A stretch of DNA of 32,000 nucleotides from Candidatus Saccharimonadota bacterium (lineage in GTDB: Bacteria; Patescibacteriota; Microgenomatia; UBA1406; GWC2-37-13). A program made the position numbers and the translations under genes. This document shows positions 9,410-28,180 of this stretch, one piece after another (position 1 is the first letter of the stretch; the number at the start of each line of letters is the position of its first letter). Under the pieces are notes generated by a model, which did no database searches, was not told where the DNA came from, and worked only from the letters and a program-made list of their open reading frames with translations. Location of the stretch: positions 210,001 through 242,000 of the forward strand of contig CP066689.1 in NCBI GenBank assembly GCA_016432445.1. The letters run 5' to 3'.

Positions 9410-9413
9410 TCGA

Positions 9414-9485: not shown

Positions 9486-9490
9486 GTGGG

Positions 9491-9519: not shown

Positions 9520-9526
9520 AAAGGTC

Positions 9527-11713
9527 ATGGAACCGAAGTTTATTCCGTCTCAAGTAGAAGAAAAAATATATAAGTTTTGGGAAGAAAAAGGCTATTTTAA
9601 AGCAAAAGTTGATAAAAACAAAAAGCCGTTCTCAATAATTCTTCCTCCTCCTAATGCTAATGCCGATCTTCATTTAGGACAGACAATGTATGTTTATGAA
9701 GATATTATGGTTCGTTATCACAAACTTTTGGGAGATGAGGTGTTATGGCTTCCTGGAGCAGATCATGCTGGTTTTGAAACGCAGTACGTTTTTGAAAAAC
9801 ATCTTCAAAAGCAAGGGAAAAGCCGTTTTGATTATGACAGGGACACTCTTTATAAAATGATCTGGGATTTTGTCATAAACAATAAAAGCAACATGGAAAA
9901 CCAACTTAAACGTTTAGGTTTTGCTCTTGATTGGTCAAAAGAAAAATTTACTCTGGACCCGGATATCGTCAAAATTGTTTATAAAACATTTAAAAAACTT
10001 TATGATGATGGGTTAGTTTATCGCTCAGAAAGGTTAGTTAACTACTGTACTAAATGTGGAACTGGATTTTCTGATCTGGAAGTAGTTCATGTTGAACGTA
10101 CCGATCCACTTTACTATATGAAGTATGGGTCATTTATTTTAGCTACAGTTCGGCCTGAAACCAAGTTTGGGGATACGGCTGTTGCTGTAAATCCAAAAGA
10201 TAAACGATATAAAAAATGGGTGGGTCAAGAGATTGAGGTAGAAGGGCTTATCGGAAAATTCCGCGTGAAAGTCATTGCTGATGAGGCTATTGATCCAAAG
10301 TTTGGGACAGGAGTTGCCAAGGTGACTCCGGCTCACGACATGACGGATTTTGAAATAGGTAAACGTCACGATTTGGAAATGAAACAGGTTATTGGATTTG
10401 ATGGAAAGCTTACTGCCATAGCCGGTCCATATGCTGGACTTAGAGTAAAAGCTGCCCGAGAGAAGGTAGTTGAAGATATGAAAAAAAAAGGCCTGATTGA
10501 TCATATTGATGAAAATTATACTCATACCGTTAGTACTTGCTATAAATGTAATACTACATTAGAACCATTGCCTATTCCTCAATGGTATGTGCGAATTCGT
10601 CCTTTAGCCGATAGAGCCATTAAAGAGATAAAAGCTAAAAAAATTTATTTTTTGCCAAAACGCTTTAAAAAAATGGCTATTCAATGGTTGACTAATTTCC
10701 ATGATTGGAATATTTCCCGTCAGGTTGTTTGGGGAATAAGAATTCCGGCGTGGCACTGCATAGATTGTGATCATGGCGGCATTCAAGAGTGGGTGATCAC
10801 CGATGGAGATAAACCAGAAAAATGCACTAAATGCCAAAGTACTCACTTGGAACAGGATATTGATACTTTTGATACTTGGTTTTCATCAGCCCAGTGGCCA
10901 TATGCCACTTTGCTTTCGCAAAGTGGAATTTCAAATTTCAAATTTCAAATTTCAAAAGAAAATTCAGAAAATGATTTTTTTAATTATTTTTATCCTACAT
11001 CTGTAATGGAGACAGGCTATGATATTTTACCTTGGTGGGTAGCCAGAATGATCATGATGGGTTATTACGTTATAGATAAGCCTCCTTTTAGGTTAGTTTT
11101 CCTTCATGGACTGGTACGGGATAAAAAAGGGCAAAAAATGAGCAAATCCAAAGGAAATGTAATCAATCCTATTGACATGGTTGACAAATATGGCGCCGAT
11201 GCCTTAAGAATGTCTCTTCTTTTTGGAGCAAAAGAGGGTAATGATATTTCAATGTCCGAGGAGAAAATTGTAGGTATGAGAAATTTTACCAACAAGATTT
11301 GGAATATCGGAAGGTTTATCCACTTGAATCAAATCCCAAATCCAAATGTCAAATTTCAAATGTCAAATACAATTTTGAAGGAATTGAAAAAAGAGTTTGA
11401 GGAGGAAAAGAAAGCTTATCTTAAAAATATGAAAAATTACCAATTTACTAAAGCTCTTGATTTAGTGTATGATTTTTTGTGGCACAGATTTGCTGATTAT
11501 TATATAGAACAATTGAAAGATGATCTAAGAACTGGTAAAATAGATGTTTTGGAAGTATTAAGATCTGTTTATAAAGAGAATTTAATAATGCTTCATCCTT
11601 TTGCTCCGTTTGTAACCGAAGCAGTTTGGAAGGTATTTGAAGGGGAAGAGAAATCAATATTAGATTCAAGATTCATGATTCAGGATTCAAGAGGTTTTAT
11701 TCATGAATCGTAA
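9527..11713 (+). CDS. valS: Valyl-tRNA synthetase (short form, no C-terminal coiled coil)
   Basis: Class I signature PPPNANADLHLGQ (HIGH-like), KMSKSKGN, the DTWFSS..YPTS..WWVARM core and a CP1/editing-sized insert. The N-terminus FIPSQVEEKIYKFWEEKGYF is typical of ValRS. Confidence 0.85.
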   Translation: MEPKFIPSQVEEKIYKFWEEKGYFKAKVDKNKKPFSIILPPPNANADLHLGQTMYVYEDIMVRYHKLLGDEVLWLPGADHAGFETQYVFEKHLQKQGKSRFDYDRDTLYKMIWDFVINNKSNMENQLKRLGFALDWSKEKFTLDPDIVKIVYKTFKKLYDDGLVYRSERLVNYCTKCGTGFSDLEVVHVERTDPLYYMKYGSFILATVRPETKFGDTAVAVNPKDKRYKKWVGQEIEVEGLIGKFRVKVIADEAIDPKFGTGVAKVTPAHDMTDFEIGKRHDLEMKQVIGFDGKLTAIAGPYAGLRVKAAREKVVEDMKKKGLIDHIDENYTHTVSTCYKCNTTLEPLPIPQWYVRIRPLADRAIKEIKAKKIYFLPKRFKKMAIQWLTNFHDWNISRQVVWGIRIPAWHCIDCDHGGIQEWVITDGDKPEKCTKCQSTHLEQDIDTFDTWFSSAQWPYATLLSQSGISNFKFQISKENSENDFFNYFYPTSVMETGYDILPWWVARMIMMGYYVIDKPPFRLVFLHGLVRDKKGQKMSKSKGNVINPIDMVDKYGADALRMSLLFGAKEGNDISMSEEKIVGMRNFTNKIWNIGRFIHLNQIPNPNVKFQMSNTILKELKKEFEEEKKAYLKNMKNYQFTKALDLVYDFLWHRFADYYIEQLKDDLRTGKIDVLEVLRSVYKENLIMLHPFAPFVTEAVWKVFEGEEKSILDSRFMIQDSRGFIHES
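10927..10954. repeat. (AATTTCA)x4 perfect tandem heptamer array inside valS
   Basis: Four exact copies read from the sequence. Translated as ISNFKFQISK in a loop longer than I recall for E. coli ValRS. Confidence 0.85.
11331..11365. repeat. Heptamer array inside valS matching the left arm of the AAATCCA-family hairpins
   Basis: AAATCCC AAATCCA AATGTCA AATTTCA AATGTCA. Encodes IPNPNVKFQMSN. Confidence 0.8.
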
Positions 11714-13547: not shown

Positions 13548-16500
13548 ATGGTAAATACGCCTGTGGCCGAAAGATCAACAGCTGGGATAAGAGAAGGCGT
13601 GGTGGATATAAAAATCCCCCTGGCAGAAGTTTTGGGGCCAAAAAATGAAGCAGAATTGCTAAAGCTTTTGAAAAGTCTAGAAATAGAAGCAAAAAACGCT
13701 AAAGTTGCCGCCAAACAAGAACAAAATAAAAAAAATAATGTTATTTCAATTAATAAAGGAGAAGAAAATAAGGGAGATGAAAAAAGTCTTAAGTTAGTAG
13801 AAAGTTCAGTTAAGCAAATTATTATTGCCTGCAATAATAATCCCAATCTTATTCCATCAAATTTGTCCGAAGCTAATCGTCATATGCTTGGTAATTTGAT
13901 GTTTCGGTTAAGAAACGTAGATCAGATTAATCCATCAACTTCTCCTTACATTTATGAGATTATCCAAAAGGCCATGAATAATCAGGCCAATCCATTGGAG
14001 ATATTATCAAAAGATGATTTGAAGTTTTTAGCGGCAGCTGATGAATATCTTCATCGACAAATACAAGATGTCATGACTGCTGCGGCCAGCAGAGCCGGTA
14101 TTGATCAAAAGACAATAGACCATTTTAAAACTGAGACAGTGCCTCCTAAAGTAACTGTTGATTCAGTAATTAATAGTCGTTTCGAACAAGAAGAGGGTAG
14201 TGCCGAATGGCTTCAGCGTCAGGAAAGAGGGATAAGTGATTATTATGATCTAAAAGAACCAAAGGAGGTACGTCTGTTAACAGCATTGTATTCAAATGAA
14301 GGTTTTGGCAAGTATATAGCTGAGACTATTAGGCAAACCATCAGTGAAGTTGGTGAAGCAGATAGAGCTTTATTGGGTAGAACTGTTAGTAAAAAAATCG
14401 AAGAGGACATGGTGCTTCTTTTCAGTAAAGTTTTCCGTAAAGCTGATGAATCAATGCCTCACGAGTTTTGGGATGAGATCGTTAAAGAAGGTTTTTATTC
14501 TTCAATTGAGATGACTTTTCACAATATGAAAAATGAGATCATCAAAAGAGGCGAGTACATGGAAAAATTGATGGCAAATCTTAAATATAATAATCAGCCT
14601 TTACCGACAGAGTTAGATGATTTAACAAAAATAGATTTTTATAGACGTTTCTCAGTTGAAGAATATCAGCCTCAAGATATAAAACGGAAAGATGGTACGA
14701 TTAAAACAGATTATGTAAAAAGAGTAGTTCCTTCGCCTGGATTTCAAAAAAGCAAAGTAAACGAGTTCACAAGAGCGCTTCAGGTTCTTATAGATCAGGA
14801 AGCAGATTTTAGAAAATATGGTCATAATGTAAGAGCTTTATTTTATAAACCAGGAGGTGAGGGAGGCTTCTGGAACTCTTTAGCACAATATGCTAATGAA
14901 TTTCCAGCTGTAGATCTTGACTCAATGACTTTTTTGCCAGATAGTGATATTTTTATGAGTGCGGCTCGTCTTTATACAAAATATTTAGAGGAGGATTTCG
15001 CGGTAAAAGACTGGGTTCATGATGCCAATATGTTTGCTAATGGCTTTCAAAGTACTAGAACTACCATTGAAGAAAATATTTTAGCAACCTTAAAAAGACA
15101 GTATGGAAAAGATATTAAAACAGAAGAATGGAGATTAAGAAGAGCCATGAATATGGGTGTGGCTATAGCCCGGGGAATCTTGATGACTGAGCCTGAGATT
15201 GCCGCCTGGGCTCTTCCTAGCATGAAGCGGGCTAAAGGTATGGCTCCAACTTTCGTTAGCTATTATCTTAATGACAATACGGCTTTAAGCACTCTTAATC
15301 CTCTTCATCATTTTTTAAGATGGCAGGCAGACGTAATCTTACAGCATAATGTGGCTTTTTTCCCGGTTGACGGGCCGACACCCAAGTTTACTGAAAAAGC
15401 TGATCACACTAAGTTGTGGGACTTAGCAGAAAAATATAGAGAGACTTTTTATGACGGTGGAAATGTTCTTAGTAAGGAAACTTTAGGCCGTAGGATTTTT
15501 TTGGAGGTTCTGCCAAATTTTGGAAAGGTAGGCAGTATTTTTACCCGTGCCGGCTGGAGAAATGAGAATGCCATTGATGGTTGGCTTGTTCACGATGGTA
15601 ATAAAACGAAGTTAGATTATCTTAAGTCATGGAAATCTTTAGAAAACATTGGTTTTGAACCTTTGTACTCTTTTGCCACTGCTATTGATGATAATCTTAA
15701 GAGCGCTTTAACTAATCCGGAATCAATGCTGGATATGGAAGCTATTGAAAAAGGAGTGGAGGAGGAAATTACCAAAGGTAAATATCAAAGACGGGAAAAA
15801 GATCAAAAAATTGAGGAGGCAGTTGAAGCTAAAAAAAAGGAGATAACTGAAAAAATAGCGGAAAGAGAAAAAATTTTTAAATACATATTTAATAAATATA
15901 TCCTTGATCCTTCTCAAAGACATCTTGATACCTTAAATTTGGATGTTCCTGATCCAGCTTATGAAGCTGAGGTTGCCAAACAAAGGGTAATCGCCGAGCA
16001 AACAGTAGATGGAAAGATTAAACAAGGAGATCAGTTTGTTAAGGACGACCGTGAAAATGAGATTATTAAAGAAACATATAGTCGTATCCTTTATAAAGGA
16101 TTAGCTGGAGTATTACGTGACCGTATGCCTGCAAAATTTCTCAGGATAGACCGTGATCGTAACTCGGTTGATGGGGAAAGCCGTTGGAAAAAAGTAAGAA
16201 ATGCTTTAATAGGTAAGACTGGATGGCCGGCAAAAGGTGTTAACGCAATGCAAGAGATGGCTATTCCATATGATCAGGCTATGAAAGATTTAGCTTTGGT
16301 TGAAACTCAACTTAGAGTGCATACTTCAGAAAAAATGAAAAAACATCTAGAGCAATATACTAATAATCCTTTAAGTTATGAGTTACATAGCGCTAAAATT
16401 TATGATTACATTCTTGATGATCGAACGATTGAGGAAGTTTTAAATGAGAATCTAGGAGATGAAACTGAGATTACTGCTGCAGAGAAGACTGCCCGTATAA

Positions 16501-17399
16501 AACGTGCCAAAGATGTTTTAAGATTAACCAATGAATTATATTTACATAATGAAAATTTTAAAGAAGTTGAAGGAATAAAATTAAATGGTCAACCAGTTCA
16601 TAAAAGTTTTCTTGATACGTTTGCTGACCAGATGATGGATAAATCGAAACATTTTCCTTTTGCCTTAGCTACTGACGAAGTGGATACTTACTTTTTAGCT
16701 TATAGGGCAGCCGGTCCCAGCATTATAAGAAGAGCTTTGGGTGATACTTCGCAAGTTGAGCAAGTAGTGTTGAAAGAAACTATTAATTATCTTGGTCTTT
16801 TTTCAAACTTAGCAATTACACCAAGCGATGAAAATTTTCATAAATTAGGAGCTCCGCTTAAAAAAATTTGGGACACAATGAATAGTATTCATGGTACAGA
16901 AATAGCCAATGAGCTAGTACACCATTTAGCCGCTTTAGCTCCGGCTTACTTTAAAACAGATACAGACGCCCGTTTGCTTTGGATGAAACTGGCGAGAGTT
17001 GGGACATATAAGTCAGTAGCGGCCAAGATAGCCGGTAGAAAATTAGGGATTTGGGAATGGGATGTTGAAAAAGGCGATAAATGGGCAATGACTTTATCAG
17101 ATTTAGGGATTCAGCCAAAAGAACCTTATCAGAGTGGTAAAGCTCCTTATAAAAAAGAAGATGTTAAAATACGTATTCCTTTTACTAACAGGAAAATTAA
17201 GATAGGCGAAAAAAAAACTCTTCGAAAACCGGATTTTAAATACTCAATTAAGAAGTTTAGAGAAGATTTTGGTGCAACAGGAAAACATATTGCTGCAGAA
17301 CTATTTATGAAGTGGGGTCCGATATTAATTTTTTTCCTGTTGTATCAGTTTATTACTAAGGCGTTTAAAGAGGCAACCGGTGAGGGTCAAAAAGGATAA
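13548..17399 (+). CDS. 1283-aa hypothetical protein with a single C-terminal TM helix (orphan)
   Basis: Long uninterrupted ORF with a charged coiled-coil-like stretch (EAIEKGVEEEITKGKYQRREKDQKIEEAVEAKKKEITEKIAEREK) and a C-terminal WGPILIFFLLYQFIT helix. I found no Walker A and no catalytic motif. Confidence 0.7.
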   Translation: MVNTPVAERSTAGIREGVVDIKIPLAEVLGPKNEAELLKLLKSLEIEAKNAKVAAKQEQNKKNNVISINKGEENKGDEKSLKLVESSVKQIIIACNNNPNLIPSNLSEANRHMLGNLMFRLRNVDQINPSTSPYIYEIIQKAMNNQANPLEILSKDDLKFLAAADEYLHRQIQDVMTAAASRAGIDQKTIDHFKTETVPPKVTVDSVINSRFEQEEGSAEWLQRQERGISDYYDLKEPKEVRLLTALYSNEGFGKYIAETIRQTISEVGEADRALLGRTVSKKIEEDMVLLFSKVFRKADESMPHEFWDEIVKEGFYSSIEMTFHNMKNEIIKRGEYMEKLMANLKYNNQPLPTELDDLTKIDFYRRFSVEEYQPQDIKRKDGTIKTDYVKRVVPSPGFQKSKVNEFTRALQVLIDQEADFRKYGHNVRALFYKPGGEGGFWNSLAQYANEFPAVDLDSMTFLPDSDIFMSAARLYTKYLEEDFAVKDWVHDANMFANGFQSTRTTIEENILATLKRQYGKDIKTEEWRLRRAMNMGVAIARGILMTEPEIAAWALPSMKRAKGMAPTFVSYYLNDNTALSTLNPLHHFLRWQADVILQHNVAFFPVDGPTPKFTEKADHTKLWDLAEKYRETFYDGGNVLSKETLGRRIFLEVLPNFGKVGSIFTRAGWRNENAIDGWLVHDGNKTKLDYLKSWKSLENIGFEPLYSFATAIDDNLKSALTNPESMLDMEAIEKGVEEEITKGKYQRREKDQKIEEAVEAKKKEITEKIAEREKIFKYIFNKYILDPSQRHLDTLNLDVPDPAYEAEVAKQRVIAEQTVDGKIKQGDQFVKDDRENEIIKETYSRILYKGLAGVLRDRMPAKFLRIDRDRNSVDGESRWKKVRNALIGKTGWPAKGVNAMQEMAIPYDQAMKDLALVETQLRVHTSEKMKKHLEQYTNNPLSYELHSAKIYDYILDDRTIEEVLNENLGDETEITAAEKTARIKRAKDVLRLTNELYLHNENFKEVEGIKLNGQPVHKSFLDTFADQMMDKSKHFPFALATDEVDTYFLAYRAAGPSIIRRALGDTSQVEQVVLKETINYLGLFSNLAITPSDENFHKLGAPLKKIWDTMNSIHGTEIANELVHHLAALAPAYFKTDTDARLLWMKLARVGTYKSVAAKIAGRKLGIWEWDVEKGDKWAMTLSDLGIQPKEPYQSGKAPYKKEDVKIRIPFTNRKIKIGEKKTLRKPDFKYSIKKFREDFGATGKHIAAELFMKWGPILIFFLLYQFITKAFKEATGEGQKG

Positions 17400-17439: not shown

Positions 17440-18216
17440 ATGAAAAAAATTATTTTCCTTTGCCTCTTCTTATTATTAACAGCTTCTTTTTTAATTTTCT
17501 CTCCAAGCAAAATATATGCCTTGGGTTTGTCTAATAATGCAGCAGAGAATATGTCAGGAATAAGCTGCGGTATTCCTGATTCATCTATTAACAGATGTTG
17601 TGCTCCTTTGTCATTTAAAGTTGATCTTAGTTTTGATAATAAATTTTTAGATGTTCCTTTAACTATATTTCGAGCCCCTCTTGAGTTTTTAGGCAATGGA
17701 ATTGTTATGGGGTTAATTGATATTTACGGTAAGGTTGAGAGATCAATAACAAAGACTAATGGATGCATTAAAGGTATCCCAAGTACAGAGAATCCGGCTG
17801 ATCCAAACTGTATTTGTAGCGATGCTAATTCCTCATCTTTAAAATCCATTTCTTATTTATGTGAGAAAATAGTTTCTCCAGATGAGAAAAAGCAGTGTAA
17901 AGCCTGTATTATTGGCGGTACTGCCAATACAAAAGCAGGTATCTGGACAGCAATAGGTTGTGTTCGGGGTGACTTAAGTTCATTTATTCAAGACACTGTG
18001 CTTAGCTGGGGTTTAAGATTGGCCGGTTTAATTGCTCTGCTTTGTATTATTTATTCGGCTTTTAGACTACAGGTTTCAAGGGGTAACCCTGAGGCTATTA
18101 AAAAAGCTCAGGAAATGCTTACTTCCTGCATAATGGGATTACTGCTTATTATCTTTTCAGTTTTTATATTAAGAATAATCGGAGTTGATATCTTAAGAAT
18201 CCCGGGTTTCGGTTAA
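17440..18216 (+). CDS. Secreted Cys-rich domain fused to a VirB2/TrbC-like two-TM pilin module
   Basis: Signal peptide MKKIIFLCLFLLLTASFLIFSPSKIYA. About 10 Cys in residues 40-175. The C-terminus is TM, SRGNPEAIKKAQ, TM, matching the pilin-like paralogs. Confidence 0.65.
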   Translation: MKKIIFLCLFLLLTASFLIFSPSKIYALGLSNNAAENMSGISCGIPDSSINRCCAPLSFKVDLSFDNKFLDVPLTIFRAPLEFLGNGIVMGLIDIYGKVERSITKTNGCIKGIPSTENPADPNCICSDANSSSLKSISYLCEKIVSPDEKKQCKACIIGGTANTKAGIWTAIGCVRGDLSSFIQDTVLSWGLRLAGLIALLCIIYSAFRLQVSRGNPEAIKKAQEMLTSCIMGLLLIIFSVFILRIIGVDILRIPGFG

Positions 18217-18239: not shown

Positions 18240-18283
18240 AGGATTAGGATGTATTCTTTTGAGGATGAGGATGTATTCCTTTG
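18240..18283. repeat. 22-nt tandem duplication straddling the stop codon of the VirB6-like gene
   Basis: AGGATTAGGATGTATTCTTTTG / AGGATGAGGATGTATTCCTTTG (2 mismatches). Confidence 0.7.
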
Positions 18284-19959
18284 ACACTTTCATCAAACCC
18301 TGGTAAGAACTTTAAGAATTTGCCTAATCCGGCTGTATTAGCACCGTAAACTATGGATGAGTATTGATGAAGTATGCCCATAGCTCCGCCTGTCCCAGTA
18401 CCGGCTCCGCCAAAGAAGACTCCAAGGTTAAGACCCAAAGGCAAGCCTTTGACACCCATAAACTCTTTTATTAGCTTAACAAGTTCAGGTACCATAAAAA
18501 TAATAGCCATCCCGAGAACTATGGCAAAATTTTTAGGATTAAGGCCATATAAAAATGGAGGTTGCCAAACATTGTAGTTGGAATTAATCGTAACATTTAT
18601 TAATACCCGCGCCGTAACCATAATAAGAATGACAGCGGGAAAAACAATAATCTCGGCCAGCAAATTTTTAAACCAATAAGAAAAACCGCCTTTTCCGGGA
18701 ACCGCTTCAAAAAGCATAAAAATGGGCGCAAATATAATCATAAGAATGATTTTAAGATAAGTCATAAGCAACAAAAAGAAAATCCTAAATAATAGCAAAA
18801 GCATAGTAAAAAATATAAGTAATCCTAGTATCCAGCCGGCGCCGTAAACAAGACTCACGATTAAAGCTAAACCAACACCTATTGCTAAAAGAGGTATGCC
18901 AAATATAATACCTCTAGGTAAAGAACCAAGAGAGTTACCTAAAACATCTAAATTATTTAATATTGATGGTAAACCAACAAAGTCATTGAGCTTCATATAG
19001 TCCTTTAGTAAAGGAAAGCCTAAGAAAAGCAAACCTAAAAGTCTAACGCCATCATTTATCCATGATGGCAAAATCTCAGCCAGCCCCTGTCCTAACTGAA
19101 ATAAATGAATAAATCCTCCAAATATAGGAATTCCTGTCTCCCAGCTTTTAATGGGAAACATACTGTCCCAGATAGTGCCAAACTGAGCCGCTGTGTATTG
19201 GTTTTGCAGTTGAGACTCAATTAAAGTAGGGTCGGCTTTGGCTAAAACAGAGATGCCCAAAACAATAATTACATACATAAAATCAATTAAAAATCCAGCT
19301 ATGGCAAAGGAAAAAGTAATGTAAATAAGGGATAAAACAATTTTGGGAAGAGCGCTTTCAACCGAGATTACAGTTTGAGGGTTAAGTTTCATCCTAAACA
19401 TAACCATAAAACCGATAAGTATAATTACCACGACTAATATTAAATAAGCCACATCACGCATAACTTTCCAGATGTTCATAAGCGGTCTTATAGCCGAGAA
19501 ACCAACGCCTTCAGCCGCAAAAGCTTGAGGCACTATCCCGGCATTCTGCAATCCCGAGTATGTCCAGTAAACGCCTGAGGCGGGAGGATTGGTAAAGGGA
19601 AAAGTAATTAACCCGCTGGCTTTTCCCAACAAACTATTTTTAAAATTTTTATCAGCATTACCTTGATTATCATTGCAATTTTCTCCTAGGAGCTTACACA
19701 AAAGCGCTTGATGGATTTGAGATAAAGCTTTAGTTTCTTTTTTTTCGGCAAGTTTAGGGTCATTAAATGATTCATAAAGTTTTTGCCGCTCAGTTTTTAA
19801 AGGGTTAACAGAAGCTGTTTTTTTATCACTTGTTAGGTATAAAAAAAGATTGATAACAGCAAACAAAACAATAACAACAATGGTTATCTTTTGAAGTGTA
19901 ATTAAGCCTTTTTTTATCCCGCCGAGCATAACATTCATTGTATACTTCTTCGCTTTCAA
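18244..19959 (-). CDS. Polytopic membrane protein, VirB6/TrbL-like (tentative)
   Basis: About 570 aa: an N-terminal TM, a roughly 100-aa loop, many further hydrophobic segments and a Gly-rich tail (FFGGAGTGTGGAMG). The ORF start at 19959 is TTG. ATG alternatives are 19938 and 19929; the latter lies 7 nt downstream of TACAAT (19937-19942, minus strand). The call rests on topology and context, not on a motif. Confidence 0.45.
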   Translation of the reverse strand: MKAKKYTMNVMLGGIKKGLITLQKITIVVIVLFAVINLFLYLTSDKKTASVNPLKTERQKLYESFNDPKLAEKKETKALSQIHQALLCKLLGENCNDNQGNADKNFKNSLLGKASGLITFPFTNPPASGVYWTYSGLQNAGIVPQAFAAEGVGFSAIRPLMNIWKVMRDVAYLILVVVIILIGFMVMFRMKLNPQTVISVESALPKIVLSLIYITFSFAIAGFLIDFMYVIIVLGISVLAKADPTLIESQLQNQYTAAQFGTIWDSMFPIKSWETGIPIFGGFIHLFQLGQGLAEILPSWINDGVRLLGLLFLGFPLLKDYMKLNDFVGLPSILNNLDVLGNSLGSLPRGIIFGIPLLAIGVGLALIVSLVYGAGWILGLLIFFTMLLLLFRIFFLLLMTYLKIILMIIFAPIFMLFEAVPGKGGFSYWFKNLLAEIIVFPAVILIMVTARVLINVTINSNYNVWQPPFLYGLNPKNFAIVLGMAIIFMVPELVKLIKEFMGVKGLPLGLNLGVFFGGAGTGTGGAMGILHQYSSIVYGANTAGLGKFLKFLPGFDESVKGIHPHPQKNTS

Positions 19960-20003: not shown

Positions 20004-20783
20004 ATGAATATCTTAAAAAGATTTTTAATCTTATCTTTTTTTATTATTTTTCTTTTTTGGGGTTTTCTATCGTCAACTTATGCCGAAAATGATAATTCTT
20101 CATCAGGTTCAACAATAAAAGAGTTTCTTAAAATCTTTTTTCCTTCTTCCTCAGGTTTTCAAAATAACATCTCTCAGTTATCAGCTGATTCTCCAAATAA
20201 CAATCAATTACAACCTCAAGAGGCAATCTCTGTTAAGAGTTTAAGGGAACTTTTCTCAGAAATTGAAAAAAAAGTTCAGATACCGGCAAGAATCATTGAA
20301 GGAGTCATGCTAGTTGAGTCGCCAGGTTTACTTAATCCAGAGTCACCTAATTTTTTAACTGATGAGCAAGTGCAGGAATATTCCCGACCTGGTGCAGTAA
20401 TTCCTGGGTGCCGCGCTAATGCCTGCTCAGCCATGGGGCCAATGCAGATGACAACAGGGATTGACAACAGCGGTTCAAGCAGCTGTTCAGACTGCGGTCT
20501 AAACGTATGTCCTAATGCTTGGGCAGGTTTTGGAGACAGTGTTAATACTTTTGGTGGCTACTCTCATTTATCTAATCCTTGCAATCTTCGCGATAACATC
20601 TATGCAGCCGCGGCTAAACTGAAAGATAATAGCGGTGCCGGCTCAGGAGTGTGGACAAAAGAACAGGTTTACCGTGCCGCTGAAAGATATTATGGTTCAT
20701 GCAGTGATAAATACCGTTATGAACGGTTGGATAACAAAACATATTGCGAGTTTTTGTGGTGGTATTATACCGGCCAGGATTAA
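20004..20783 (+). CDS. Secreted lytic transglycosylase-like (SLT/VirB1-like) Cys-rich protein
   Basis: Signal peptide MNILKRFLILSFFIIFLFWGFLSSTYA. SLT-like motifs VMLVES (Glu-Ser) and AMGPMQMT (GxMQ), then IYAAAAKL and AAERYYG. The ATG at 20004 is preferred over 19938. Extended -10 TGgTACAAT at 19986-19994. Confidence 0.55.
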   Translation: MNILKRFLILSFFIIFLFWGFLSSTYAENDNSSSGSTIKEFLKIFFPSSSGFQNNISQLSADSPNNNQLQPQEAISVKSLRELFSEIEKKVQIPARIIEGVMLVESPGLLNPESPNFLTDEQVQEYSRPGAVIPGCRANACSAMGPMQMTTGIDNSGSSSCSDCGLNVCPNAWAGFGDSVNTFGGYSHLSNPCNLRDNIYAAAAKLKDNSGAGSGVWTKEQVYRAAERYYGSCSDKYRYERLDNKTYCEFLWWYYTGQD

Positions 20784-20786
20784 TTT

Positions 20787-21260
20787 ATGGAAAAAAACCG
20801 TATTTATATAATTATTTTTGTCCTTCTTTTTATCCTGGTGATTTTATTGGGTACGGTTAATCTGTTTTCTTCAACTAAGAAAAATGAACAGTCTTTAATT
20901 TCAATTTCAAGTCCGGTTACTCCAACCACCAACTTAGTTTTTCCATCAAATTTTCCCTATGTTTCACCGGCTGTTACATCTGAATTAGCGCCATCAACAA
21001 CAATTTCTTCCACAAAAGTGATAACGGCATTAGAGCTCGCATATCCTTTAAAATATGAAAACTTAATTATTGATTATATTCAGATTAGAAAGCAGATAAT
21101 TATTTTTTATCCAAAAGAAAAACAGCAAGCTGAAACAGTATTTAAGCAATTTTTAAACCAGTATCAAACAAATGAGCAAGAATTTGCAGGTATGAAAATT
21201 GATTACATTGGTTTAACCCGTGATCCTAACGAACCGGTTCCCGGATCTTTACTTCAATAA
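20787..21260 (+). CDS. N-terminally anchored small protein with a shared C-terminal ~60-aa domain
   Basis: N-terminal TM IYIIIFVLLFILVILLGTV and an S/T/P linker. The C-terminal LAYPLKYENLIIDY..IIIFYPKEK..FKQFL..KIDY aligns with the C-termini of 22530..22997 and 21254..22537. Confidence 0.6.
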   Translation: MEKNRIYIIIFVLLFILVILLGTVNLFSSTKKNEQSLISISSPVTPTTNLVFPSNFPYVSPAVTSELAPSTTISSTKVITALELAYPLKYENLIIDYIQIRKQIIIFYPKEKQQAETVFKQFLNQYQTNEQEFAGMKIDYIGLTRDPNEPVPGSLLQ

Positions 21261-22537
21261 TAGATTATTTGCAAGTGTCTTATCCAGGATGGATCTTCAA
21301 CTCCGTAGGACAATAAAAAATTTTGAAACTCTAGGTTTCCTTCATTTGATTGAGCACTTGATATTTCAACAATAACTTTATTGATACTAATATCATTCCT
21401 TATACTAAAATACTGGCCACTATAGGGTGTTTGTTGAGCTATCATTTGTCCAACTAATTGTTCTTTGCGGATAAACTCTTCTTCTTCTTTATTGGTAATT
21501 AAACCGCTATGTTCTGAAGGATAAATATTGTTAGAGCGTTCATTTTTTAAAACACTGATAATATAGCTTATTTGTTCAAGAACTTGAGGGTGAACCAGAA
21601 CTGCTCCGTGTCCATCAAAGCCGCCTTTAATCATGGTTCTTTGTTCTTTTAGTTTGGCTGATTCATCTGACTCTTTGGCATCAAGCATGCTATTTATCCG
21701 CTGATATTCTTCAAGCTTTTCATCAACATATTTTGATATGGGAAACTCTACCCATTGTTCCATGGAAAATAGAGTTTGCATCCTTTTACCGCCTATGACC
21801 TGAGTTGAGGCGAGCGCATAAGCATATTTTGGCGCAACAACTAAATCATCAAATGAAGCAAATGATATGTATCTCACTCCTTGGCTGACTAGATCATTTA
21901 CTTCATTTTCTACTCTAGAATCAATATCTTCTTCCTGAGCTCTTTCTAAATAAAATTGACCTGCTTCGCCGCCTATTATGGGGGCAAGCCAAGTGTCGGT
22001 GGGAGTAGGAATAATATCAGCTCCTTTTAAAGCTCCATCTAAGGATATGACGGCAGCCGTTTTGCCGGCATGTTTTTTAGCCAACTCATGAGCTAAATAT
22101 CCTCCCTGGCTGTGGCCGATAATGACAAACTTATCTTCAGGAAAGTTTTCTTCGTACCAATTCATTAATTTATCCATGTTCTCAACGCTTGTATATGGAT
22201 GTTGAGTTGAGTCTTGATGATCATAATGTTCACCAAGCCGAGGGTTATTGTCATTTACGCGGTAAGAGATATCTAAAACATCATATTCGTCAAATCCGGC
22301 CGAGTAAATTGCTTGTTCTTTTAAATATTTAAAACTTTCCTGATCATCAGCCGTTGCCCCAAGACCGGGGATAATTATAAATTTTAAACAAGGTTCACTA
22401 TTTCTTCTTTTCCATGTCCCGTCCCAATGCTCAACCCATAATTCACGTGTCCATTCTTTAGGTAAAAAAGCTGCGGCAGCTGTTAATCCTGCGGCTTGTA
22501 AAAATTGTCGGCGGGATAACCGCCATTGTTCACTCAT
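21254..22537 (-). CDS. Tat-exported alpha/beta hydrolase (lipase/esterase-like) with the shared C-terminal domain
   Basis: Twin-arginine signal LSRRQFLQAAGLTAAAAFL. Nucleophile elbow IIGHSQGG. C-terminal PYSGQYFSI..EGNLEFQNFL..WIRHLQIIYY. Confidence 0.7.
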   Translation of the reverse strand: MSEQWRLSRRQFLQAAGLTAAAAFLPKEWTRELWVEHWDGTWKRRNSEPCLKFIIIPGLGATADDQESFKYLKEQAIYSAGFDEYDVLDISYRVNDNNPRLGEHYDHQDSTQHPYTSVENMDKLMNWYEENFPEDKFVIIGHSQGGYLAHELAKKHAGKTAAVISLDGALKGADIIPTPTDTWLAPIIGGEAGQFYLERAQEEDIDSRVENEVNDLVSQGVRYISFASFDDLVVAPKYAYALASTQVIGGKRMQTLFSMEQWVEFPISKYVDEKLEEYQRINSMLDAKESDESAKLKEQRTMIKGGFDGHGAVLVHPQVLEQISYIISVLKNERSNNIYPSEHSGLITNKEEEEFIRKEQLVGQMIAQQTPYSGQYFSIRNDISINKVIVEISSAQSNEGNLEFQNFLLSYGVEDPSWIRHLQIIYY

Positions 22538-22997
22538 AGTTGATTACGAGCAAGTTTTTTCTTATCCATAATCTGTCTTGAATGCCATTTTTTTTCAAAA
22601 AAGCGTCAAACTCTTCATTGCCTTCTTTTTCTTTTGACTTAGGGATAGTGACTACATACTGAGCTTTATTGTAATCATTAATCATCTTGAAGTTTTTTCC
22701 TGAGTAAGGCAGAAGATTAAGCAACCGGCCAACCGCAGCTTCTTTTTCAACAATTGGAGACTCAGCTTTGTTTATTTCTTGAGCGCTTTTTTTATAATCC
22801 TGGTTTACAAAAGGAGCGTCAAAAGATAAGGGAGTTGGGGATAGTTTTGATGGAATAAAATCGGTAGGTATAACTGATTTACTATCATAAGAGTTTGATT
22901 TTTTAACATTTTGTTTTTGCAGTAAAGTAGTTACAATTATCAAGAAAATTGTCACGATTAAAAAAACAACAACTATGATTTTAATTTTATAATTCAT
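22530..22997 (-). CDS. N-terminally anchored small protein with the shared C-terminal domain
   Basis: N-terminal TM, then LPYSGKNFKMINDY..VVTIPKSKEKEGNEEFDAFL..WIRKNLLVINY. The start overlaps the upstream stop (ATGA), and there is an 8-nt overlap with the downstream gene. Confidence 0.6.
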   Translation of the reverse strand: MNYKIKIIVVVFLIVTIFLIIVTTLLQKQNVKKSNSYDSKSVIPTDFIPSKLSPTPLSFDAPFVNQDYKKSAQEINKAESPIVEKEAAVGRLLNLLPYSGKNFKMINDYNKAQYVVTIPKSKEKEGNEEFDAFLKKNGIQDRLWIRKNLLVINYE

Positions 22998-23788
22998 ATT
23001 TTTTTAATTGGGAAGGCATAAAACCAGGTAAAAGCTGAGACGCTTTTGATAATATTTTCCGGTTTTTCATCATTGCCGTCAGCATAACTGCAGTTATTTG
23101 GGTCTCTAATGCTAACACTTGAAGAATCAATATCGACATTATCAACCGTGAATGCGTGATCGATTCTTCGTGGCGTACTGCAGCTGGCGCAGGGGAAATC
23201 TTTAGAAGAGGCAATAATAAGATAACCCTGATCAAGATAATTTTTAGCTTGTTTAAGATCTAAAATTCCATTGAAAGCAAGGTTTTGTCCCACATGCATT
23301 CCTAATCCTTCAAACCAAGAACTGGAAAGAGCGTTTAGCAAATAGCTGGCATTATCTCCGCAGGTTCTCCATCCATTTTGCTGAAAAATTAAATCTACTT
23401 GAGGTGGAGAGAGTCCTATGCCAAAAGTAGATAAGATCATTGATAGTGAGGTTGGAGCACATCCGGCCGCGCCTAAATTACATATACTTTTCCACATAGT
23501 ATTACCTTGACAATAAAAAACAAAGCCGTTGCGTTTTTCTTTATTGTAAATAGAGGGATTAGGAGGATTAGAAGGATTAGGCAGTTGATCTTCGGGAATG
23601 TTTGAGGTTGATATTTCTCCTTTCGGAAAAAAAATTTTTAAAAATTCTTTAATAGTTTCTGCTCCATTACTCTTGCTTGATTCGCTGTCTGGTTGAGCAC
23701 GAACTGTAGTAGAGAAAGAAACTAATACTATTAATAAAATTAATATTATTTTACTCATATCGTTGACAAGAGATTTTTTTTTAGACAT
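22994..23788 (-). CDS. Secreted papain-like cysteine peptidase (Peptidase_C39-like / cell-wall hydrolase candidate)
   Basis: Signal peptide ending in TVRA. YCQGNTMW..GAAGCAPTSLSMIL (nucleophile Cys context). Later IDHAFTV (His) and IRDPN. Confidence 0.5.
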   Translation of the reverse strand: MSKKKSLVNDMSKIILILLIVLVSFSTTVRAQPDSESSKSNGAETIKEFLKIFFPKGEISTSNIPEDQLPNPSNPPNPSIYNKEKRNGFVFYCQGNTMWKSICNLGAAGCAPTSLSMILSTFGIGLSPPQVDLIFQQNGWRTCGDNASYLLNALSSSWFEGLGMHVGQNLAFNGILDLKQAKNYLDQGYLIIASSKDFPCASCSTPRRIDHAFTVDNVDIDSSSVSIRDPNNCSYADGNDEKPENIIKSVSAFTWFYAFPIKKI

Positions 23789-23797: not shown

Positions 23798-26743
23798 ATG
23801 GCCGGCTTTTTTGATTTTATAAAAAAACCTAACTCACCTGCAACTCCAAATCAGCAGCCTGCCACTATGAGTCAGCCTCCTCAAGTTCCTTCACCGGTAA
23901 CTAATTCTCCTGCCTTGCCTCAAACTCCAACGCAGGAAGCTAACATGATGCTTCATTTTGACACTCATCAAAGCCTTCGGCAAGCTCCACCCTCCGTCAA
24001 GACTTCCGCGTCCGTTAAAACTCCGGCGGACAAGTCGGATGACAAGCCTGATGACAAACTTTCAAAGCCATCAATTAATCCTTTATCTCAAAATTTAAGC
24101 GGAGAAAAAAGAGTCAATATTGATGTTATGACCCATTTAACTCAACGTTCAAACCGCGCTTTTTTATCGGCTAACAGTAAAGCCAAAGAATTAAAAAATA
24201 GTTTTATTGACAGTGAACATATTCTTCACGGGTTATTGTCTGATGGAGAGATTTATAAATTGTTTATTGATCTTAAAATCCAGCCTCAGTTTATTGAGGA
24301 TGAACTTAACAAACTTTATCGTCGGGAGAATAACAATGCTTCTCCTCAAATGTCTCCAAGAGTTAAAAAAATTATTGACGATTCATTAGTAATTGCAAGA
24401 AAACTAGGTTTTGAGTTCATTTCACCTGAACACATTTTACTGGGTTTATATGAGGAAGGTGAAGGGGTAGGCGCTAGAGTATTAGTTAAATTAGGATTAA
24501 AAAAAGAAGATATTAATAAAAAGATATTGGGGAAGAAAGAAGGGTTGGAAGCTGATCAAAAAGAAGCTCAAAATAAGAAAAATGTTTTGGATCAATATAC
24601 TATAGATTTAACTGCAAAAGCCTCACAAGGGCTTCTGGATCCGGTTGTCGAACGGTCGGAGGTAATTGAGAGAGTGATCCATATTTTATCCAGAAGAACT
24701 AAAAACAATCCGGCCTTGGTTGGCGAGGCAGGCGTTGGTAAAACTGCTATTGTTGAAGGATTAGCGCAGAAAATAGTGTCTAAACAAGTACCTGATCCAT
24801 TGCTTAATAAGAAAATTTTACAGCTTGATCTTATGAGTATTTTGGCAGGCGCCTCTCATAGAGGTGAGTTTGAAGAAAGGATGAAAGATTTGATAGAACA
24901 AATTAAAGCCAGTCAGGGTCAGCTTCTCCTTTTTATTGATGAGATTCATAATATTGTAGGTGCCGGTTCATCTGGCGAAGGGTCACTTGATGCTTCAAAT
25001 TTTTTAAAACCAGCTCTGGCTCGTGGTGAAATACAGCTTATTGGAGCAACGACTTTAACAGAGTATCGGAAATATATTGAAAAAGATCCGGCTCTTGAGC
25101 GCCGTTTTCAACCAGTACTTGTGCCCGAACCCACCGAAGAGCAAGCTGTGAAGATGCTTAAAAGCATTAAAGATAAATATGAAGCCTTTCATAAAGTAAA
25201 AATTCCAGATGATGCTGTTAACGCGGCGGTTCGTTACTCTAAACGTTATATTGGTGACAGGTTTTTACCTGATAAAGCAGTGGATTTGATTGATGAGGCG
25301 GCCTCTGCTGTTAGGCTTCCATTAATTTCTTTGCCTGAAGAAATTAAGTCGATTGAAACCCGAGTAGCAGAATTGACTCAAGAGGCGGCGGAAGCTGAAA
25401 AAGCCTCTGATAAAGTTAAAGCAAGGATAATCCGTTCAAAAATTGATGATATCCAAGCTGATCTTAAAGAAAAGAAAGATCAATATAATGTAAAAAAAGC
25501 CCAAACAACAACCGAAATAACTGAAAATATTATTAAAGATATTGTTTCCCGCTGGACTGGAATTCCGGTTTCCAAGATTACAGGCAATGAAAAAGAAAAA
25601 TTAGCTTCGCTTGAAAGCATTATGCATAAAAGACTTATCGATCAGGAGACAGCTGTATCAGCTGTGGCCGCGGCAGTAAGACGCGGAAGAGCCGGCTTGA
25701 AATCAAATCAAAGACCAATTGGAAGTTTTGTTTTCTTAGGACCAACTGGTGTTGGTAAAACAGAACTGGCTAAAACTTTGGCTGATATTTTATTTGGTCA
25801 GGAAGAGGCCATGGTTAGATTTGATATGACTGAGTATATGGAAAAGCATGAAGTAGCTAAACTTTTGGGAGCTCCTCCAGGATATGTGGGTTATGAGGAG
25901 GGCGGGAAGCTAACTGAAGCTGTACGTCGCAGACCTTACTCGGTTGTCCTTTTTGATGAGGTAGAAAAAGCCCATCCGGATATTTTTAATATTCTTTTGC
26001 AGATTCTTGATGATGGACGATTAACTGATAATAAAGGTCATACAATTTCTTTTAAAAATACTGTTGTTATTTGCACTTCAAACATTGGGACGCAGGTAAT
26101 TCAGGATGAGCTTTTGAAGGAAAAGGATCTGGAGATTAAAGAAGAGACAGAAGAGGAAATTAAAAGAGATAAAGAAAAATATGAAGGAATTAAAGGAAAA
26201 GTAATGGCTGAATTAAAGAAATTTTTCAAACCAGAACTTATTAACCGTTTTGATGAGATAATTGTATTTGAACCTTTAAAATTTGTGCACATGATGGAAA
26301 TTGTAAAACTGCAGTTAAAAAGTGTAGGTAAGCTTCTGGAAGATCAAGATATTGGTTTTTCCTATACAGAGGCTGCGGTTAAAGAAATAGTTAGATCAGG
26401 ATTTGATCCTATTTATGGAGCGCGTCCATTAAAAAGAGCGATCCAAAAATTATTGGAAAATCCAGTTTCTACTTTGATAATTGAAGGCAAAATTAAAGCA
26501 GGTAATGTTTTGCATACTGATTTTGATGGAGATAACTTCATTTTTAATGTAGAACAAACAGAAATGCTGCCAGCAGATCAAGTCAAAAAAAATGAAATCA
26601 AAGAATTTGTGTGTAATGTTTGTCATCAAGAGTTTAAAACAGAGGTAAACCAGTCATCAACCGTAATTTGTCCTTATTGTACAGCCAAAAATATTAATGA
26701 AAAGAAAGCAGAGGAAAAAAAAGAAATAAATGTATTAAAATAA
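23798..26743 (+). CDS. Two-ring Clp/Hsp100 AAA+ ATPase (ClpC/ClpB-like) with N-terminal P/Q/S/T-rich extension and C-terminal zinc ribbon
   Basis: Clp_N repeats ([17 protein letters not shown]). Walker A GEAGVGKT and GPTGVGKT. Walker B LFIDEIH and [20 protein letters not shown]. Short middle domain of about 65 aa. C-terminal [16 protein letters not shown]. Confidence 0.85.
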
Positions 26744-26747
26744 AAAT

Positions 26748-27155
26748 ATGAATAACTATACGCCTATTAATGTAAAAAAAATTGAAGAAAAATTTGTTAA
26801 AGAGCAAAAAAAAGGCATAAACTTAGATACGATATTGCTTCTTATTGGAACCTTGCTGGCAGTTGCTTTAATCTTCATGCTTTTCATTCTTATTCAAAAG
26901 AAAATGCAGTCGAGTCAAGAAGCTTCTGTTATACCAACTATTGGTTCCCGTCCTAAACCAACATTAGTTAAGGAAAATGTTGTCTCCACTCCTTCAGCAG
27001 TGCCATCGATAGAAGTCACTAAAGTTCTAAGTATTACGCCATCATCAACAGTCTCAGCAACACCTCAAGCAACAGCTTCAGCTACGCCTACCTCTACACC
27101 TTCAGCTTTATTAACTAGTCCTACCGCTTCGCCGTCAGCGACTAAAACACCTTAA
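26748..27155 (+). CDS. N-terminally anchored S/T/P/A-rich surface protein
   Basis: TM ILLLIGTLLAVALIFMLFILI followed by the low-complexity tail SATPQATASATPTSTPSALLTSPTASPSATKTP. Confidence 0.55.
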   Translation: MNNYTPINVKKIEEKFVKEQKKGINLDTILLLIGTLLAVALIFMLFILIQKKMQSSQEASVIPTIGSRPKPTLVKENVVSTPSAVPSIEVTKVLSITPSSTVSATPQATASATPTSTPSALLTSPTASPSATKTP

Positions 27156-27161
27156 AATAAT

Positions 27162-27836
27162 ATGACGGATTTTCCCATACAGTCTTCAATATTTATTTTA
27201 CAGATAGCGGTACTTTATTTTGTTTCAAGAATAACAATTCAGGAAATTTTTCGTTTCTTTTACTTTTTTACTTCAAATCGAAAAATTATTTTTAGCTTGA
27301 TGTCTTTAGTGCTTCTTCCCGGAACAGCTCTTCACGAAATAGCTCATTTTATCATGGCGACTATTCTTATGATGAGAGTGAAAGAAGTAAAAATAATTCC
27401 TGAATGGGAAGGAAATTCTATTAAATTAGGTAGAGTACTTTATGAAAAAAAAGATGCGGTTAGAGGAATTATTGTAGGTATTGCTCCTATATTGGCTGGT
27501 ATTTTCTTTTTTTGGTTTGCAGCTCAGATAGGCCGCGATATTAACAATAATCTTGGATTAAATATCTTATTAGTTTATCTAATATTTATTATATCTAGCA
27601 CTATGTTTTCCTCAAAACAAGATCTTATAGATATTATTTTTACGATTCCTTTCTTCTTGGTTATTATAGGAGGCGCTTATATATTGAATATTCCTATTAT
27701 TAAGATAATACAGAATTTTTTACCAAAGTTGGATTCAGGTTTAGTTATTATCAACCGTTTTCTATTTTATTCTCTTGCTATTCATATAGTGATAATAGTA
27801 TCATTTAAAAGTTTCAAAAGAGTGTTAAAGAAATGA
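27162..27836 (+). CDS. Polytopic membrane protein with HExxH motif (putative zincin-like membrane metallopeptidase, DUF3267-like)
   Basis: LLPGTALHEIAHFIMA plus at least four further hydrophobic segments. Its stop overlaps the start of the next gene (ATGA). Confidence 0.5.
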   Translation: MTDFPIQSSIFILQIAVLYFVSRITIQEIFRFFYFFTSNRKIIFSLMSLVLLPGTALHEIAHFIMATILMMRVKEVKIIPEWEGNSIKLGRVLYEKKDAVRGIIVGIAPILAGIFFFWFAAQIGRDINNNLGLNILLVYLIFIISSTMFSSKQDLIDIIFTIPFFLVIIGGAYILNIPIIKIIQNFLPKLDSGLVIINRFLFYSLAIHIVIIVSFKSFKRVLKK

Positions 27837-28180
27837 ATAATATAGTAGCTCAAGGTTTAAAAATAGTTCCTTCAGTGGGTGCCGGAACACCTCAGCCTGC
27901 TTCATTGACATTAACTGGGCCGTTAAAGGGTATCAATACTATTGGTGATGTAGTCAACAGAATAAGCCAGTTTTTAATACCGCTGGCCGCAGTTATTTTA
28001 TTTATTGTTTTAGTTTATGGAGGTTATCAGTTTTTATTATCTCAAGGCAATCCTGAGAAAGTTAAATCTGCAAGGGCTATACTTACTGCCGGAGTAATAG
28101 GATTTATTCTGCTTATAATCTCATTTACTTTAGTAAAGCTTATATCTTTTATTTTAGGGCTGGATACAGGCATAATATAG
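27833..28180 (+). CDS. VirB2/TrbC-like small two-TM protein, paralog 4
   Basis: TM, SQGNPEKVKSAR, TM. 115 aa. Confidence 0.6.
   Translation: MNNIVAQGLKIVPSVGAGTPQPASLTLTGPLKGINTIGDVVNRISQFLIPLAAVILFIVLVYGGYQFLLSQGNPEKVKSARAILTAGVIGFILLIISFTLVKLISFILGLDTGII

Follow-up and report, generated by a model that had tools for sequence, protein, structure and literature searches.

The stretch of DNA analysed here, called the window below, comprises 32,000 nucleotides (nt) of contig CP066689.1 (assembly GCA_016432445.1, positions 210,001 to 242,000 of the forward strand) from a bacterium of the Microgenomatia. It encodes two secreted enzymes, hereafter proteins A and B, that carry the same eleven-residue peptide, TIKEFLKIFFP, in front of their catalytic domains. 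Protein A (20004..20783, plus strand) is an open reading frame of 259 residues counted from its ATG, plausibly similar to lysozymes and soluble lytic transglycosylases (SLT), and protein B (22994..23788, minus strand) is a C39-like cysteine peptidase of 264 residues. Database proteins identical to both exist in Candidatus Roizmanbacteria, HYW86_01190 and a 'C39 family peptidase'.

Three further genes lie between A and B. S157 (20787..21260, plus strand) and S155 (22530..22997, minus strand) are small anchors, each consisting of a transmembrane (TM) helix, a linker and a domain of about 65 residues that we call domain X. The third gene (21254..22537, minus strand) codes for an alpha/beta hydrolase of 427 residues that is exported by the twin-arginine translocation (TAT) pathway and also ends in domain X. 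The five genes are tightly packed. S157 starts 3 nt past the stop codon of A, S155 and B overlap by 4 nt (ATGA; 22994-22997), the hydrolase and S155 by 8 nt (22530-22537), while S157 and the hydrolase, which run towards each other, share 7 nt at their 3' ends (21254-21260). Judged from their positions in the sequence, these gene-end overlaps suggest translational coupling.

In a preliminary description of this DNA both enzymes were given the same layout, and this order is found in A as well as in B. Protein A starts with a predicted Sec signal peptide at residues 1-27 (20004..20084, plus strand), a hydrophobic segment with the cleavage site between STYA and END, followed by a polar stretch (28-36), the helix formed by the shared peptide (37-47; copy 1, 20112..20144, plus strand), a low-complexity linker rich in S, N, Q and P (20145..20231, plus strand) that reaches to about residue 76, and the catalytic domain at residues ~77-259. 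In B the corresponding parts are a predicted signal peptide at residues 1-31, a polar stretch at 32-44, the helix at 45-55 (copy 2, 23624..23656, minus strand), a linker to about residue 87 and the enzyme at residues ~88-264. The cleavage sites were assigned by eye from the A-x-A-type pattern, and linkers homologous to that of A have a predicted local distance difference test score (pLDDT) below 50 in AlphaFold2 (AF2) models. However, the layout was incomplete, as domain X and the small anchor gene beside each enzyme had been overlooked.

Both stretches translate to TIKEFLKIFFP, so the claim of an identical 11-mer in two secreted hydrolases holds. The chance expectation for identical 11-mers between two proteins of about 260 residues with the composition of A and B is ~3e-9. 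At the DNA level the two copies differ by 7 nt in six codons, and each difference is synonymous, as had been described (aca/act, ata/att, gag/gaa, ctt/tta, atc/att and cct/ccg, copy 1 before copy 2). Five of the eleven codons are the same, while 6.0 would be expected for two independent codings of the peptide at the codon frequencies of 23 window genes; the synonymous sites of both copies are thus fully randomised. A BLASTP alignment of A against B is limited to residues 21-58 of A and 25-66 of B (E 1e-5) and does not extend to the catalytic parts, in agreement with the view that the two catalytic domains are unrelated. When all proteins of the window were scanned with a position-specific scoring matrix (PSSM) built from independent helices only, copy 2 ranked first and copy 1 second of 9573 positions.

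The peptide belongs to a family of conserved helices on extracytoplasmic wall hydrolases of Roizmanbacteria and their relatives. Short-form orthologues of both A and B, i.e., those with the helix after a signal peptide, have an aligned helix with a hydrophobic residue at positions 2, 5, 6, 9 and 10 (92-100% of the sequences), an acidic one at position 4 (Asp or Glu, 69%), never a hydrophobic one at position 7, and Pro or Ser as a rule at position 11. From 26 independent long forms, described below, the consensus L-x-L-L-x-[DE]-[LF]-[LF]-[KR]-[IVA]-[LF]-[LF]-[NS]-F is obtained; here position 4 is acidic in 24 of the 26 and position 7 is K or R in 17. The mean pairwise identity between orthologues is 0.28-0.29 in the helix, 0.14-0.24 in its flanks and 0.56-0.66 in the catalytic domains. 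The helix is therefore present in the orthologues of both enzymes, and what is conserved there is the amphipathic pattern together with the acidic position 4; the exact 11-mer is specific to the window genome.

The hydrophobic moment of the helix is 0.5-0.7, above that of shuffled sequences, its mean hydrophobicity is 0.8-1.2, its net charge lies between -1 and +1, and the hydrophobic face is about 200 degrees wide. As far as can be read from the alignments, the conservation of specific polar residues points to a protein partner. In AF2 models the motif is helical at low confidence, sits between disordered linkers and is not packed on the catalytic domain; in the model of B the helix spans residues 42-53 with a pLDDT of 53-59. 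In such models a low-confidence, undocked helix is typical of a motif that may fold on binding.

In most relatives the enzymes exist in a full form, with the order TM helix, linker, domain X, long helix, linker, motif helix, linker and catalytic domain. The long-form homologues of A (400-445 residues), for example, contain a motif-type helix such as SLSILVDLLKIMF internally, between linkers. According to a position-matrix scan, most long members have a matching helix, located 17-80 residues behind domain X, and 26 of these score at least 7 bits, a value reached by at most 1% of shuffles; they include proteins with M74, VanY and M23 cargo. With hhalign, the region from domain X through the helix aligns at a probability of 98% across proteins with different catalytic domains, canonical SLT included.

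The search of related genomes that had been proposed in the preliminary description thus reveals a helix shared by many wall-degrading cargo domains: A-type, C39-like, Peptidase_M74, VanY, M23 and canonical SLT. It is also found at the C-terminus of the alpha/beta hydrolase. In L001 and L002/L003, two of the related loci compared here, this enzyme ends, after a linker, in the helix (…AGLLIELINSLLRIGR and …FSLLWDMFNTLLSR), and a PSSM scan of the entire L001 and L003 loci has the helices of A, B and the hydrolase as its three top non-membrane matches. The helix is independent of position and of cargo. As it can be internal or C-terminal in relatives, it is not an N-terminal sorting signal linked to the signal peptide. 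A tie to the signal peptidase site must consequently be given up, and of the three roles once offered for the peptide (docking, sorting or tethering), docking or tethering remains as the best reading.

The assignment of B as a C39-like enzyme is well supported. It matches Peptidase_C39_2 (PF13529) over residues 106-231 with 31.9 bits (cut-off 24, E 2.3e-7), the same match is precomputed for 18 of 20 homologues, and 19 sequences of the family all retain Q94, C110, H211 and D229. The AF2 model contains a papain-like domain with pLDDT above 90, for which Foldseek returns the C39-like peptidase 3erv of B. anthracis (2e-4), staphopains (3e-4) and the pseudomurein endoisopeptidase PeiR (9e-4). Both the family hidden Markov model (HMM) and the papain-like fold thus place B among the C39-like peptidases. 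Some C39-like homologues of B lack the helix (P0058, P0060, P0063 and P0055). Helix-less homologues have another short motif before the enzyme, (T/C)(K/I)KVGNP or TKVGNP, and P0055 has a further N-terminal domain in place of the helix.

For A, 44 homologues were found. Neither A nor the 43 other proteins match a Pfam or NCBIfam model; SLT_2 is touched by 2 of the 44 family members at E 0.13. When A is aligned with a canonical SLT protein by hhalign, the N-terminal module aligns and the catalytic domain does not. The AF2 model of an A homologue has a confident catalytic domain, whose top Foldseek matches are a GH23 chitinase, MltE and g-type (goose-type) lysozymes, all non-significant at E 0.1-1.6; the best of them, the GH23 chitinase 3w6c, has E 0.11 and probability 0.89 and is likewise non-significant. 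Invariant in the family are a Glu in an E-S/T motif (VESP) and G-P-M-Q, and an NLRDNIY motif is kept as well. From these motifs and the weak fold match it is plausible that A is SLT-like, as had been proposed, although no Pfam or NCBIfam model for SLT matches it. Sequence searches of the PDB with A and with B gave nothing useful.

Domain X is predicted by AF2 to have an alpha-beta-beta-alpha-beta order, with pLDDT values of ~88-98 as means over 10-residue blocks. It occurs three times in the window: at residues 79-142 of S157 (nt 21021-21212; local HMM, E 4e-16), at residues 84-153 of S155 (nt 22539-22748; E 3e-20) and at residues 362-427 of the hydrolase (nt 21257-21454; E 3e-16), which also matches Abhydrolase_1 and TAT_signal. 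A family of at least 401 representative proteins emerges at E <= 1e-3 from an exhaustive profile search with domain X; when its alignment was used in a word-indexed search, there was no match at E <= 0.01. In the set of 401, domain X follows an N-terminal membrane helix, and the catalytic domain, if present, is downstream of it. The catalytic types behind domain X are A-type, B-type, CHAP, VanY/M15, Peptidase_M74, M23, NlpC/P60 and SLT, and about one third of the proteins, with lengths of ~115-230 residues, have no catalytic domain. No Pfam or NCBIfam model matches either domain X or the helix, and no description of either was found in the literature searched.

In secondary-structure order and size, as well as in lying directly beyond the membrane behind an N-terminal TM helix, domain X resembles the ring-building motif domains from membrane rings of secretion systems (PrgH and YscD) and of sporulation. 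However, the structural match is a lead and not significant, as the ring proteins PrgH, YscD and MxiG of type III secretion systems are found only among the weak, non-significant Foldseek matches (E 3-9), and domain X has no sequence similarity to Pfam or NCBIfam families.

The window clade represents a split version of the full form. Here the enzyme has a signal peptide and the helix, while the TM helix and domain X are encoded by a separate gene downstream. A small TM-domain X gene lies directly downstream of 22 of the 31 enzymes without a domain X of their own and of 1 of the 18 enzymes with one (Fisher p 7e-6, kinship of the genomes ignored), from which it follows that the small genes stand in for the missing cis anchor. 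In another clade (L124, L151 and L166) long-form A and B adjoin each other, and L142 contains a fusion protein of 620 residues (7734-9596, plus strand) consisting of domain X, one helix, an A-type domain and a C39-like B domain. The C-terminus of the hydrolase varies across genomes: apart from the forms with the helix, it is domain X in the window, L180, L183 and L184, and neither of the two in L004 and L182. At this end of the hydrolase domain X and the helix look like alternative routes to the same place. The idea that the helix replaces domain X, in the manner of a Rosetta stone, was rejected, since the long forms have both. A TAT signal on an alpha/beta hydrolase of a Candidate Phyla Radiation (CPR) genome, with a C-terminal appendage that can be domain X, the helix or none, is an observation in its own right.

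Comparison of the A and B helices within and between genomes reveals a second layer of conservation. Over the 11-residue core, the same-genome pairs of nine genomes have 52 identities in total, compared with 29.4 +/- 6.6 in shuffled pairings (p 0.001; p 1.4e-4 with BLOSUM scores; kinship ignored). Four genomes account for this excess: the window, L180/L179, which belong to one sample (SVTEFFKIFFP and TVTEFLKIFFP), L152 (VMVGFLKAFFP and VMVDFLKAFFP) and L151 (MIADLFSLLFN and MLADLFALLFN). L184 provides a fifth matched pair, DPFSLILRMFSLNFGGI and DPLQMILNLFTLFSGVI. Among identical residues, the codons are identical at 5 of 11 positions in the window, 2 of 10 in L180/L179, 8 of 13 in L152 and 5 of 12 in L151. 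As the codons are randomised in all four tested pairs, the matching does not stem from recent DNA copying, and it is selection that has kept the peptide constant. The preliminary description had argued this from the window, and the three other genomes now agree; a recent gene conversion as the source of the A/B identity is ruled out by the same comparison. That in these five genomes the A and B helices are far closer to each other than to their orthologues, in spite of randomised synonymous sites, indicates a probable combination of selection and concerted evolution. Two sources of the matching are possible, an old conversion followed by purifying selection or co-evolution with a shared partner.

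We are thus dealing with a helix that is conserved, amphipathic, position-independent and shared by many cargo types, that is under purifying selection, and that is matched between enzymes in several genomes. We suggest, tentatively and with a confidence that stops a little short of even, that it is a docking peptide which brings the hydrolases to a partner shared by all of them, on the outer side of the membrane. A short amphipathic helix with conserved polar residues, its independence of position and cargo, the matching between enzymes and the alternation with domain X on the hydrolase all fit a docking helix. In the split chassis, each enzyme would keep a cleavable signal peptide and the helix, and the gene for the membrane helix with domain X would be translationally coupled downstream. 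The helix, lying between disordered linkers, would fold on binding and recruit A and B to one partner, together with the alpha/beta hydrolase in some genomes. In this way wall-cutting activity could be concentrated at an envelope machine encoded by the pilin-rich locus, for which a precedent would be the way in which PrgL and TraM target PrgK and TraG to the type IV secretion systems (T4SSs) of Gram-positive bacteria. The partner may be the domain X scaffold, another protein of the locus or another copy of the helix.

Several observations weigh against such a docking helix. In an AF2 model of the natural cis form, with TM helix, domain X, helix and enzyme in one chain, the helix has a pLDDT of about 55 and is not docked on domain X. 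Between genomes with strongly different helices, the S155-type domain X retains 60-70% identity, and is thus no obvious co-evolving receptor. In other genomes (L001, L003, L004, L124, L166 and L183) the A and B helices share only the pattern and resemble each other no more than chance pairings do, so that strict matching is not required, and the matching itself rests on nine to ten genomes, treated as if they were unrelated. In L152 and L151 the flanks of the helix are also similar between A and B, which shows that the N-terminal modules of the two proteins are paralogous; an old gene conversion between these modules, followed by purifying selection, could explain the matching with no shared receptor. 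Finally, the envelope machine is an assumption, as neither VirB4 nor another T4SS core gene was detected in the window. Docking in cis, on domain X or in the C39 groove, is unsupported by the AF2 models (helix pLDDT 53-59), and a pilin-like or VirB6-like protein as the receptor, as had been proposed, is not borne out.

It can further be speculated, and we regard this as a doubtful extension, that the helix is a lineage-specific address code. The whole wall-enzyme set of each Roizmanbacteria-type genome, with muramidase-like, cysteine peptidase, esterase, LAS and M23 metallopeptidase members, would be tagged with the same helix, which would co-evolve with one receptor on a divergent T4SS- or pilus-like envelope machine with a ring of domain X. 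With such a programmable machine an ultra-small episymbiont would perform multi-enzyme drilling of its own wall or that of its host.

Other explanations of the helix have to be considered. The helix could lie in the plane of the outer leaflet of the cytoplasmic membrane and keep the secreted hydrolases at the surface. C-terminal amphipathic helices anchor DD-carboxypeptidases of the PBP5/PBP6 type, known from E. coli, and the strong amphipathicity and high hydrophobicity described above (moment 0.5-0.7, mean 0.8-1.2) agree with this, as do the helix at the extreme C-terminus of the L001 and L003 hydrolases, the undocked state in AF2 and the fact that enzymes of the split clade would otherwise be free after cleavage of the signal peptide. 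However, most carriers already have an N-terminal TM anchor, and a helix of only ~11-14 residues with a near-invariant acidic residue, a net charge of -1 to +1 and no basic flanks fits an anionic membrane poorly; it has the amphipathicity of such anchors and lacks their positive charge. A lipid partner also gives no account of the matching between A and B within genomes, and we therefore find this explanation unlikely. With the PBP5/PBP6 anchors the helix shares the terminal placement on an exported enzyme in L001 and L003; it differs from them in being neutral to acidic with a conserved Asp or Glu, in coexisting with TM anchors and in matching between enzymes. The helices could also associate with each other as homo- or hetero-oligomers, so that the enzymes bundle into a multi-enzyme wall-degrading complex in which identical helices are compatible in packing. 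The wide hydrophobic face of ~200 degrees, the (near-)identity of A and B helices in five genomes despite randomised codons, the A/B fusion in L142, which suggests joint action, and the dimerisation mediated by the CHAP domain of PrgK (PMC11323569) speak for this possibility. Still, the L142 fusion keeps one helix, the A and B helices clearly differ in several genomes, and 11-14 residues are short for a stable bundle; self-association appears rather improbable to us.

The helix could also lack a function of its own and be left over from the duplication of an N-terminal module; gene conversion from time to time and a general requirement for some structure in the linker would keep the copies similar. 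The paralogy of the N-terminal modules, the similar flanks in L152 and L151 and the drift of the exact sequence between genomes would be expected from such a history. However, the pattern and the acidic position 4 are kept across hundreds of diverged proteins with at least six cargo types, next to linkers that cannot be aligned, the identity has been kept after synonymous saturation in four lineages, and the helix has been placed independently at the C-terminus of a different enzyme, all of which makes a relic very improbable. Least credible to us is a recognition or processing site for a protease, either B itself or the M50B-like protein (27162-27836), with a cut in the adjoining Gly/Ser-rich stretch that frees or activates the enzymes. 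Double-glycine leaders, which C39 domains recognise, form amphipathic helices in which the hydrophobic spacing is fixed and a Glu is conserved; B is C39-like, P-x-G-G or a G/S-rich sequence often follows the helix, and the M50B-like gene is syntenic. The helix resembles these leaders in being short and amphipathic, in the fixed spacing of its hydrophobic residues, in its conserved acidic residue and in its place beside a C39-like enzyme. Here, however, there is no Gly-Gly at a fixed distance (PSSSG, PKGE, PVSDG, PGGSG and SFGSS all occur), export is via Sec or TAT and not via a C39 transporter with an ATP-binding cassette (ABC), and the helix can be internal or C-terminal and is also found on the peptidase itself. 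B has a predicted Sec signal peptide and no ABC domain, and no ABC exporter was detected in the locus with Pfam, so that the system is not a bacteriocin-processing C39 system. When the helix is the extreme C-terminus there is nothing beyond it to release, AF2 does not put the helix of B into its own groove, and helix carriers are found in loci where no B-type gene was detected.

Coming back to the docking helix, the closest known parallel is found in Gram-positive T4SSs, where the VirB1-like proteins PrgK of pCF10 and TraG of pIP501 are TM-anchored extracytoplasmic wall hydrolases with an SLT domain and a papain-fold cysteine peptidase domain (CHAP) that are recruited through PrgK-PrgL and TraG-TraM contacts (PMC11323569; PMC12102498). 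As in these, SLT-like and C39-like enzymes occur together in the window, in a pilin-rich locus near yidC-jag. The L142 fusion, a TM-anchored protein with A and B domains, echoes SLT plus CHAP and is the form in which a muramidase/SLT and a cysteine peptidase are combined in one anchored chain; in the window the two domains are on separate secreted proteins. Unlike PrgK and TraG, A and B match neither SLT nor CHAP models, the tether consists of domain X and the helix, the system is split into four genes, and a third enzyme, the alpha/beta hydrolase, belongs to the set. The general idea of targeting wall hydrolases to a secretion machine is known; the module, the series of split and fused forms and the genome-specific matching are new.

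In Patescibacteria the genes of the T4SS are grouped close to the origin of replication (PMC12102498). In Microgenomatia pilin arrays are common, VirB6 is scarce or hard to detect and VirB1 homologues are mostly unrecognised, and Saccharibacteria rely on a divergent T4SS with adjacent peptidase and lysozyme genes (PMC12102498). Against this background, domain X together with a helix of 12-14 residues marks a wall-hydrolase toolkit in Microgenomatia that includes two catalytic families which standard models miss or barely detect. The split and fused forms allow predictions on joint action of proteins, the matching within genomes can serve as an internal control of specificity, and the helix is small enough for direct testing. 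Attachment to host cells is the presumed lifestyle of CPR bacteria. The discovery of a receptor would reveal how such reduced cells aim their lytic enzymes and would provide a handle for annotating poorly recognised envelope machinery.

The order of genes around A and B is strictly conserved in the window clade. The 5' part consists of a LeuRS-type tRNA synthetase, YidC, Jag, a protein of ~1200 residues, a Cys-rich pilin-like protein and a polytopic protein of ~550 residues. Then follow A, a small domain X gene, the hydrolase, a second small domain X gene and B, and the 3' part contains a ClpB-like ATPase, a protein of 130 residues, an M50B-like protein and a VirB2-like pilin.

Two proteins of the 5' part are candidate partners by synteny. 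The Cys-rich secreted protein (17440..18216, plus strand; 258 residues) has a C-terminal hairpin like that of the VirB2-like T4SS_pilin family, with matches to PF18895 (E 3.7e-5, below the cut-off) and to the NCBIfam model of a pilin-like conjugal transfer protein (E 0.0016). The polytopic membrane protein (18244..19959, minus strand; 571 residues, ~10 TM helices) has no family match and may be a candidate for a highly diverged VirB6 analogue. A segment in its C-terminal tail, GKFLKFLPGF (PSSM 7.4), was dropped as a motif candidate because it is not conserved in the orthologues. Altogether the window contains five VirB2-like genes of the T4SS_pilin family (PF18895): three small ones in an array (404-781, 785-1147 and 1149-1445, all minus strand), a further small one (27833-28180, plus strand) and, as the fifth, the gene of the 258-residue protein. 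Searches with Pfam and NCBIfam models detected no gene for VirB4, VirD4, a VirB8-like protein or a coupling protein in the 32 kb of the window.

The remaining neighbours are conserved as well. A protein of 1283 residues (13548-17399, plus strand), with a single C-terminal TM helix and without a family match or Walker A motif, follows yidC-jag in all related loci, where its counterparts have 1155-1248 residues. The ClpB-like double-AAA ATPase (23798-26743, plus strand), which always adjoins the hydrolase genes, has a low-complexity N-terminal extension of ~110 residues and a zinc-ribbon-like C-terminal tail (CxxC...CxxC); in the long-form clade its length is 1271-1330 residues. A single-TM protein of 135 residues (26748-27155, plus strand) and the M50B-like protein (plus strand), which has six TM helices and a weak Pfam match, are both syntenic and are kept between ClpB and the pilin gene in all related loci.

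Sequences similar to the peptide also occur outside the family. In 596 Gb of genome contigs, the degenerate DNA pattern for [DE]FLKIFFP has at least 119 matches in unrelated taxa. The matches listed include an 809-residue Pelagibacter protein, DinG-like helicases of Paenibacillus (DTMDFLKIFFPSL), transporters (NCS1-type; in Brevibacillus, ~520 residues) and non-coding frames, and none of those listed is from Roizmanbacteria. A random occurrence in cytoplasmic proteins had been named as evidence against a dedicated tag. The 8-mer does recur in unrelated cytoplasmic and membrane proteins, but this is expected by chance at 596 Gb; these occurrences are chance or convergent and have no bearing on the helix family.

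In another lineage a second, different N-terminal module is shared between the two enzyme families. P0021 of the A family, P0062 of the B family, L126 and L148 contain a Cys-rich domain, CSPCGDITxYCKN...GYRCGNDSCGHPDSTC, which is followed by the helix.

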